Shown one piece after another: positions 6,001 through 9,000 of a stretch of DNA of 64,000 nt. The position numbers were made by a program. The stretch lies in the NCBI RefSeq assembly GCF_009931435.1, contig NZ_CP043414.1. One strand, given 5' to 3'. The DNA is from Escherichia coli (GTDB lineage: Bacteria; Pseudomonadota; Gammaproteobacteria; Enterobacterales; Enterobacteriaceae). Position 1 is the stretch's first letter. Every line of letters starts with the position of its first letter.

Positions 6001-9000
6001 GTCGGACGCACCGGTATTTCAGCAGCATTCCTTGGCAACACGGCGGAACAGGTGATTGATCATCTTCGCTGCGACCTGCTGGTCATTAAACCTGACCAGT
6101 ATCAGACACCCGTTGAACTGGATGACGAAGAAGACGATTAACGACTCTTCAATAACTGACAAGGCCCGAGTTAACGGGCCTATTTTTTACTTACTGCTCT
6201 TCGCCGCCAAGGAAATAAATTCCCAACGGGATTGCCAGCAACACAGTAAAGACCAGGCTATAAACAAAAATCATTGATGACTGAATCACATACATTGATG
6301 TCGTCCACTCAGACAGCGGAATATTGTACTGTTCTATCACGCCGCCGATGGTCGCGCGAGTCACAACCGACGCCGCAATAATGAAAACCGCCAACAAACC
6401 AAAGAGAAATTTCTTCCCTTTCGCTGACTTCAGTTTCGCCATGATCATGATGTAATCCTTGTGCAGACAAATTTCTTGTTACCTAACCGTAACAATACCA
6501 TGACATTTCACCGTTGTCTGCTCTGAAAACCTCACCTCTTAGCTGGATTTACAATCAACGCATTGATTAGTTAGCTAATGTTGCTACTTCCTTCCCTGAC
6601 TATTGATGATCTGAATGAATTGTCGCGGTAAAATATCCCCGCCAGGGGTTTCCGGCATGACGACAATTATCTGGAGGAGCCTGATAAAACAATGATCGCT
6701 GAACTGTTTACAAATAATGCGCTTAATCTGGTCATTATTTTCGGTAGCTGCGCAGCATTGATTCTGATGAGCTTTTGGTTTCGCCGCGGAAATCGTAAAA
6801 GAAAAGGATTTTTATTCCATGCGGTGCAATTTTTAATCTACACCATAATTATCAGTGCTGTTGGTAGCATCATTAATTATGTTATAGAAAACTATAAACT
6901 CAAATTTATCACCCCAGGCGTTATCGATTTTATCTGTACGTCCCTGATTGCGGTTATTCTGACGATTAAACTATTTCTGCTGATAAATCAGTTTGAAAAA
7001 CAGCAGATTAAAAAAGGTCGCGATATCACCAGTGCGCGGATTATGTCGCGTATTATCAAAATCACCATTATTGTGGTACTTGTTTTGCTTTATGGCGAAC
7101 ATTTCGGTATGAGCCTTTCTGGCTTGCTGACCTTTGGTGGTATTGGTGGTCTGGCTGTCGGTATGGCCGGTAAAGATATTTTGAGTAACTTCTTTTCCGG
7201 GATTATGCTCTATTTCGACCGTCCTTTTAGTATTGGCGACTGGATCCGTTCACCGGACAGAAATATCGAAGGTACAGTAGCGGAAATTGGCTGGCGAATT
7301 ACCAAAATTACGACCTTTGATAATCGTCCGTTATACGTCCCGAACTCGCTGTTTTCGTCTATCAGCGTAGAAAACCCAGGACGAATGACCAACCGACGTA
7401 TTACCACGACAATCGGTTTACGTTATGAGGATGCGGCAAAAGTGGGAGCCATTGTCGAAGCCGTACGTGAGATGCTTAAAAATCACCCAGCCATCGACCA
7501 GCGACAAACCTTACTGGTTTATTTCAACCAGTTTGCTGACTCGTCATTGAATATTATGGTTTATTGCTTTACCAAAACCACAGTATGGGCTGAATGGCTT
7601 GCCGCCCAGCAGGATGTTTATTTGAAGATTATCGATATTGTACAGTCACACGGCGCGGATTTCGCGTTCCCAAGCCAGACGCTGTATATGGATAACATTA
7701 CACCACCAGACCAGGGTCGTTAATTCAGACATCACTGGCGTTACCCACAAGGGTAACGCCAGTTCACATCAATGTTTCACAATATACATAGTCCGGCTAT
7801 ACGCCACATCTTCCGGGTTATTAATGGGATAACCTTTCAGCCACGGCTTGATTAATCGTCCATTGGTATATTGATAAATTGGTGCAATCGGTGCTTGCTC
7901 CATGAGGATTTTTTCTGCCGCATTGTAATCGGCATTACGCGCTTTAACGGTATTTTCCGTTGATGCCTGGGCCAAAACTTTGTCGTAGGCCGGGTTGTTA
8001 AAACGTGAAATGTTCCCTGAATGCGTTGACGTTAATAATGTCAGGAAGGTGGAGGGTTCATTATAATCCCCCACCCACGAGGCGCGGATAACATCAAAAT
8101 TACCTGTATTACGACTATCGATATAGGTTTTCCATTCCTGATTTTGCAGTTTGACATCTACACCAAGGTTCTTTTTCCACATCGATGCCACAGCAATCGC
8201 AATTTTTTGATGGTTTTCTGAAGTATTATACAAAAGCGTCAGCTTCAGCGGTTTTTGCGGACCATAACCGGCTGCGCTCAACAAAGTTTTTGCCTGCGCA
8301 TTCAGTTCTTCCTGACTCATTTGTTCAAACGGCGAAGGCTCCGGCGTGAATCCGGCAGTAACATCTGGCGTAAAATGCCACGCTGGTTTTTCGCCCGTCC
8401 CCAACACTTTTTCGGTCATCAGGCGGCGATCTATCGTCATACTTAATGCCAGACGAACGCGCTGATCTGCCGTCGGCCCTTTTTGCGTGTTAAACGCATA
8501 ATAATAGGTCCCGAGCTGCGGCGGTGTATAAACCTGCCCCGGAATATCCTTCAACAGCTTCTGATACATATTTTTTGGGAAGGATTCGGTGATATCAATA
8601 TCCCCCGCAAGATAACGCTTAGTGGCTGCGGATTCCTGATTAATTGGCAGGAAGGTCACTTTTTGCAACACCGTTTTGGCGTTATCCCAATAATGAGTAT
8701 TTGGCACCACGACCAGTTTTTCATTGACTACACGCTCTTTAAGAACATAAGCGCCATTGCCGACCAGATTTCCGGGTTTCGTCCACTCTTTCCCGCTTTC
8801 TACGTTAGCTTTTTGCACCGGGAAGAAGGCAAAATTGGCTGTTAAATTCACAAACCATGGCAACGGTTTATCAAGCTGGATTTTCAAAGTACGGGCATCA
8901 ACCGCGGTGACGCCTAGCTGATCAGGCGTAGCTTTACCATCAATAATCGCCTGTGCGTTGTTGATTCCCGCCAGCGCGGCAAACCAGGCAAACGGCGACA

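Follow-up and report, generated by a model that had tools for sequence, protein, structure and literature searches.

An uninterrupted ynaJ-ynaI intergenic region in Escherichia coli carrying the empty target site of a K-12 IS5 insertion

The divergent intergenic region between ynaJ and ynaI in Escherichia coli raises a simple question: was the IS5 copy that lies there in K-12 gained by K-12, or has it been lost from genomes that are now without it? In NC_000913.3 this element is annotated as 'insertion sequence:IS5F' at 1396044-1397238, carries insH4 (b1331) and sits between ynaI (b1330) and ynaJ (b1332). The same ynaI-IS5-ynaJ arrangement is found in another K-12 genome. The ynaI/ynaJ copy is one of the 11 IS5 copies of BW25113, for which flanking CTAA/CTAG sites are mentioned, and the abstract of the same publication states in general terms that IS5 insertion into its targets responds to stress, DNA structure and DNA-binding proteins (PMC11677980). 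A BW25113 derivative in which the ynaI/ynaJ copy has been removed without a scar was built in that work.

Here we analyze a stretch of 64,000 nucleotides from an E. coli genome (contig NZ_CP043414.1), referred to as the window. A first-pass annotation of the window had reported a divergent interval of about 240 bp without a transposase ORF at this locus, had set it against the IS5 (insH) of K-12 between ynaI and ynaJ, and had read the interval as the ancestral, uninterrupted state. The K-12 annotation bears out the insertion, and the interval proves to be 243 bp long, at 6449-6691, with no transposase ORF. We show below that the locus carries a single, intact copy of the IS5 target and that the continuous state prevails among complete E. 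coli genomes. The interval is almost certainly an ancestral, never-occupied intergenic region, IS5 having been gained at a TTAG by the K-12 lineage.

The gene order in the window is abgA-abgB-abgT-ogt-fnr-uspE on the plus strand, followed by ynaJ on the minus strand, ynaI on the plus strand and mppA on the minus strand. Locus and flanking genes (mppA-ynaI...ynaJ-uspE-fnr-ogt-abgT) are those that surround IS5F/insH4 in K-12. The features that define the locus are as follows:

6191-6448, minus strand: ynaJ, 85 aa, a DUF2534 inner-membrane protein (ORF and Pfam DUF2534 at E 4.5e-41)
6449-6691, no strand assigned: the ynaJ-ynaI divergent intergenic region, uninterrupted, 243 bp (ORF coordinates and sequence reading)
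6692-7723, plus strand: ynaI, 343 aa, a low-conductance mechanosensitive channel of the MscS family (ORF, Pfam MS_channel domains and RefSeq annotation)
7769-9382, minus strand: mppA (ORF and collinear RefSeq annotation)

The bounds of the spacer are exact, with the ynaJ start codon ending at 6448 on the minus strand and the ynaI start at 6692, and the ynaJ coordinates are the same in the RefSeq annotation of a collinear genome. YnaJ is identical to the K-12 protein, its gene differing by one synonymous change at codon 2. YnaI contains three MscS-channel domains (Pfam) and differs from K-12 YnaI by two residue substitutions. No ORF of at least 40 aa lies inside the spacer; two short ORFs that overlap ynaJ touch its left edge only.

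An IS5 element measures about 1.2 kb, ends in 16-bp inverted repeats (GGAAGGTGCGAAYAAG) and contains an ORF for the InsH DDE transposase; no such element is found anywhere in the window. Across the whole 64 kb, the terminal repeat of 16 bp goes unmatched even with three mismatches allowed. Searches of the window with K-12 IS5 (blastn) and with InsH (tblastn) return chance matches of 12-18 nt and short peptide matches, none of them within 6449-6691. The first-pass annotation had named IS5 inverted repeats and transposase fragments as signs that would speak against its reading; both were searched for in the interval and both are absent.

The position at which the element is missing can be fixed to the base. 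The target preference of IS5 is YTAR (CTAA, CTAG, TTAG, TTAA), and two features of the spacer are relevant:

6567-6578, no strand assigned: TTAGTTAGCTAA, three abutting YTAR motifs read from the sequence, of which the middle motif is the K-12 target
6571-6574, no strand assigned: TTAG, read as CTAA on the minus strand, the IS5 target in its unoccupied, single-copy form, identified by the duplication of TTAG on either side of IS5F in K-12

Alignment to the K-12 IS5 flanks, which the first-pass annotation had proposed as a check, was run and places the empty target at this TTAG. With megablast, window 6150-6990 matches K-12 in two pieces, query positions 1-425 and 422-841, and the four shared positions, 422-425, are window 6571-6574. 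Around the element K-12 reads GATTAG-TTAG-(IS5, 1195 bp)-TTAG-CTAATG, or in full CATTGATTAG-TTAG-GGAAGGTGCGAATAAG...(1195 bp)...CTTGTTCGCACCTTCC-TTAG-CTAATGTTGC, whereas the window reads GATTAG-TTAG-CTAATG, that is CATTGATTAG-TTAG-CTAATGTTGC, with contiguous flanks, no element and one TTAG instead of two. This is the exact pre-insertion sequence. Once IS5 and one TTAG are removed from K-12, the two spacers differ by two SNPs, at 6487 and 6636. The distances from the TTAG to the two gene starts are 122 bp (ynaJ) and 117 bp (ynaI), and the last eight bases of TTAGTTAGCTAA, TTAGCTAA, form a perfect palindrome. The locus therefore combines contiguous flanks, a single target copy, a match to YTAR and freedom from IS remnants with the empty outgroups described below, as an empty target should.

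The first-pass annotation had also drawn attention to CTAA-type tetranucleotides in the spacer, of the kind that IS5 targets. Such motifs are indeed present, with five YTAR in the spacer (CTAA at 6483, TTAG at 6539, TTAG at 6567, TTAG at 6571 and CTAA at 6575) and the real target among them, but their number carries no evidential weight. It is 2.7 times the window average, yet it equals the 5.0 expected from the composition of the spacer, and 58 % of shuffles reach five. We accordingly rejected an enrichment of YTAR in the spacer: its own AT-rich composition predicts the count, which is thus no signal in itself.

In the K-12 lineage, IS5 would have integrated at the TTAG equivalent to window 6571-6574 and produced a 4-bp target duplication, as seen at IS5 insertions. 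A staggered cut at the YTAR, followed by repair that duplicates the 4 bp, is the route suggested by IS5 biology together with the duplication in K-12. Such an insertion would move ynaJ and ynaI 1199 bp further apart and leave each gene some 120 bp of intact upstream sequence, while the window lineage, having never undergone it, would have retained its one TTAG. Insertions of IS5 that activate promoters are known upstream of the bglGFB, glpFK, flhDC and fucAO operons, in intergenic regulatory regions and at YTAR sites. The K-12 copy is likewise intergenic and at a YTAR, but we found no evidence of altered ynaI or ynaJ expression.

The distribution of the two states among genomes gives the change its direction. 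The locus is present in 5422 complete E. coli genomes and, by a criterion of 80 % coverage (blind to insertions shorter than about 900 bp), uninterrupted in 5055 of them. The 37 full-length matches sampled at even intervals along the ranking each consist of one 841-bp piece, with ynaI annotated next to ynaJ. The exact K-12 junctions occur in 346 genomes (left) and 355 genomes (right), and about 11 of the 5422 genomes show neither the uninterrupted state, the K-12 type nor the ISKpn26 state described below. The junction carriers listed (64 entries from 63 distinct strains; 60 right, 4 left, one strain in both) are all laboratory K-12 derivatives. The 60 listed right-junction carriers comprise MG1655 sublines, C600, J53, DH5alpha, DH1, RR1, NCM3722 and others, and the 4 sampled left-junction carriers are ER1709, ET12567, MC4100 and a 'dog'-labelled strain that is a laboratory transconjugant.

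The ynaI-side IS5 junction outnumbers the ynaJ-side junction by 355 to 346, leaving nine genomes with the ynaI-side junction only. These nine are probably laboratory strains with the known IS5-mediated deletion of ynaJ-uspE-fnr, which has been described in some W3110 and MG1655 stocks (PMC2072959). The deletion stocks have the same IS5 copy beside ynaI, and a second copy is needed near ogt; the window lineage is without a substrate for this recombination because it has no IS5.

Other Escherichia lineages extend the comparison beyond E. coli. In E. whittamii, Escherichia sp. E1V33 and the divergent 'E. coli' E69 the full 243-bp spacer is present without gaps, at 81.5-82.7 % identity to the window, as found by a scan of species-representative genomes (degenerate gene-start anchors, conserved N-termini and a spacer of 228-258 bp) that returns uninterrupted loci only and is silent on E. 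albertii, E. fergusonii, E. marmotae and E. ruysiae. The exact 22-mer across the empty site, TTGATTAGTTAGCTAATGTTGC, has no match in the species-representative collection, though it is present in most aligned E. coli alleles. Other Escherichia species differ within its bases, and the E. coli representative genome presumably has either IS5 at the site or a variant allele.

With 5055 of 5422 genomes empty, K-12 derivatives making up the carriers listed and outgroups free of gaps, absence of the element is ancestral and its presence in K-12 derived, which upholds the ancestral, uninterrupted state put forward in the first-pass annotation. Judged by these sequence comparisons, the uninterrupted architecture predates E. 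coli, with the K-12 IS5 as a lineage-specific gain. One rival account would produce exactly the same letters: IS5 could once have been present in an ancestor of the window strain and then been lost by a precise excision restoring the single TTAG, and the window sequence alone does not discriminate between this history and a site that was never occupied. We regard excision as highly improbable. Among the carriers listed, no strain other than laboratory derivatives of K-12 has the junction, and the window is not K-12, its identity to K-12 falling from 98.2 % (ynaJ side) to 95.7 % (ynaI/mppA side). The 5055 genomes and the three other Escherichia lineages are empty, and excision requires one gain and one exact loss where no event is needed.

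The same counts bear on a second rival, in which IS5 is present in the organism and was dropped or collapsed in the assembly, multi-copy insertion sequences being a known difficulty of short-read assembly. There is very little chance that this happened here: repeats normally break contigs rather than rejoin their flanks with exactly one target copy, the joined sequence is the allele of 5055 complete genomes, and the entire 64-kb window is free of IS5 sequence. A gain of IS5 in the K-12 lineage, at a site never occupied in the lineage of the window, accounts for the locus without either of these events, and none of the results speaks against it.

The window departs from K-12 and from other complete genomes at further places. 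Less than 3 kb from the spacer its structure differs from that of K-12 a second time: mppA and mpaA are adjacent and divergent (window 9383-9564), as in strain WL297, whereas K-12 has pgrR (ycjZ) beside mppA and the window is without pgrR at that place. The K-12 alignment stops at 9469. Between tpx and tyrR lies an ORF of 680 aa (12009-14051, plus strand), annotated 'hypothetical protein' in the collinear RefSeq genome and without a Pfam match at E 0.01 or better. Farther along, sapF and fabI are separated by a 7.9-kb segment (50349-58244) with genes for an MFS transporter, an outer-membrane efflux lipoprotein, an RND permease, a periplasmic adaptor and a TetR-like regulator. This efflux segment is absent from WL297, the best-matching complete genome. 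Of the 5422 complete E. coli genomes that match a query spanning it (49500-59200), 2037 cover 80 % or more of that query, and the segment is thus a common accessory island. No close match to the whole window was found among 5426 complete RefSeq E. coli genomes, a collection that leaves out Shigella, and the window lineage is thus without a representative there; the best complete-genome identity is 98.9 % over the first 20 kb and 99.3 % over the efflux island.

Within the spacer, conservation changes at the point of IS5 insertion. Identity to the three other Escherichia lineages is 70-74 % in the ynaJ-proximal half (6449-6570), and the following feature begins directly after the target:

6575-6691, plus strand: the ynaI-proximal half, strongly conserved, presumed to be the ynaI promoter and leader (92-94 % identity to the same three lineages)

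This pattern fits a ynaI-side half that holds a constrained ynaI promoter and leader, with the insertion just upstream of it. A scan for the sigma-70 consensus over 6100-6800 gives no promoter match, and the spacer region gives no Rfam match. In Reg-Seq the K-12 ynaI promoter is listed without identified regulator sites (PMC7567609).

Two short structured elements stand out in the spacer, one on each side of the target. On the ynaJ side, at 6476-6495 and 28 bp upstream of the ynaJ start codon, lies the perfect palindrome TTGTTAC-N6-GTAACAA. Both of its 7-bp arms are invariant in six Escherichia sequences, and the 6-bp middle varies (CTAACC, CTAAAC, TTGTGT, TTGCGC), a pattern that looks like an operator or a leader hairpin. 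We know of no regulator assigned to this palindrome. Elsewhere in the window it has one match with a single mismatch, at 40529, which is compatible with chance. On the ynaI side, the proximal leader contains the GC-rich hairpin CCCCGCCAGGGG followed by TTT (window 6637-6648). The hairpin is invariant across the Escherichia lineages, the two bases directly before it vary, and on the minus strand 6640-6657 is picked out by a terminator scan. Two further pairs of inverted repeats, 6463-6470/6514-6521 and 6618-6625/6661-6668, were rejected as structures, the changes in their arms being uncompensated in the Escherichia alignment.

The TTAG at 6571-6574 has received an IS5-family element in another genome as well. 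In Eco_23-3571 (NZ_CM176496.1), a natural isolate from an African green monkey on St Kitts, this TTAG is occupied by an ISKpn26-like element of 1196 bp, which was detected with a query built to contain IS5 in reverse orientation. The element lies within 2567-3770 of NZ_CM176496.1 2510237-2515360, at the equivalent of window 6571-6574, in the same gene neighbourhood and with the same 4-bp duplication, that of TTAG. It differs from the K-12 case in being another member of the IS5 family (91.4 % identical to IS5) and in its reverse orientation, its transposase reading toward ynaI; like IS5F, it is absent from the window. The flanks in Eco_23-3571 differ from those of K-12 at 24 of 3924 bases (99.4 % identical), and the insertion is thus independent of that in K-12. 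No case of ISKpn26 at the site in the K-12 orientation was found, the best matches being K-12 genomes at 80 % coverage only.

Two independent events on one tetranucleotide suggest an addition, rather than an alternative, to the history given above: the TTAG may be a preferred landing site of IS5-family elements and not a random YTAR. We put this forward tentatively, as rather less probable than a plain coincidence. In its favor, IS5 in K-12 and the ISKpn26-like element in Eco_23-3571 chose the identical tetranucleotide in opposite orientations, and this TTAG stands in a run of three YTAR at the boundary between the fast-evolving and the conserved part of the spacer. Against it, there is only one recurrence among 5426 genomes with thousands of IS5-family copies (12,000-13,000 matching places). 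With some 36,000 YTAR per genome (a rough estimate, from 7.6 per kb), a chance coincidence with one of the 11 IS5 sites of K-12 is not very improbable. The surveyed insertion events are numerous and uncounted, hence the two events at TTAG 6571-6574 are given no significance value.

The three other Escherichia lineages have TTCG where E. coli has TTAG, and the adjoining CTAA is conserved in them. Judging from this alignment, the IS5 target TTAG may be specific to E. coli. It is possible, if somewhat doubtful, that the TTAG is a structurally favoured landing pad of the IS5 family, specific to E. coli and perhaps made by one substitution, at which insertions are tolerated at the upstream edge of the ynaI block.

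The allele in the window is the one that lacks a well-documented insertion of K-12 (IS5F, insH4, b1331), and in this respect it is already known and ordinary. At ynaJ-ynaI, K-12 is the exception and the window is typical. Coordinates and promoter annotations derived from K-12 need a shift of 1199 bp at this locus, and the window lineage is without the IS5 copy through which laboratory stocks have undergone ynaJ-uspE-fnr deletions. Any regulatory coupling of the two divergent promoters, those of ynaJ and ynaI, is best studied in an uninterrupted background such as that of the window. If the TTAG is indeed a landing pad, the regulation data on ynaI and ynaJ from K-12 would come from an atypical, split promoter region.
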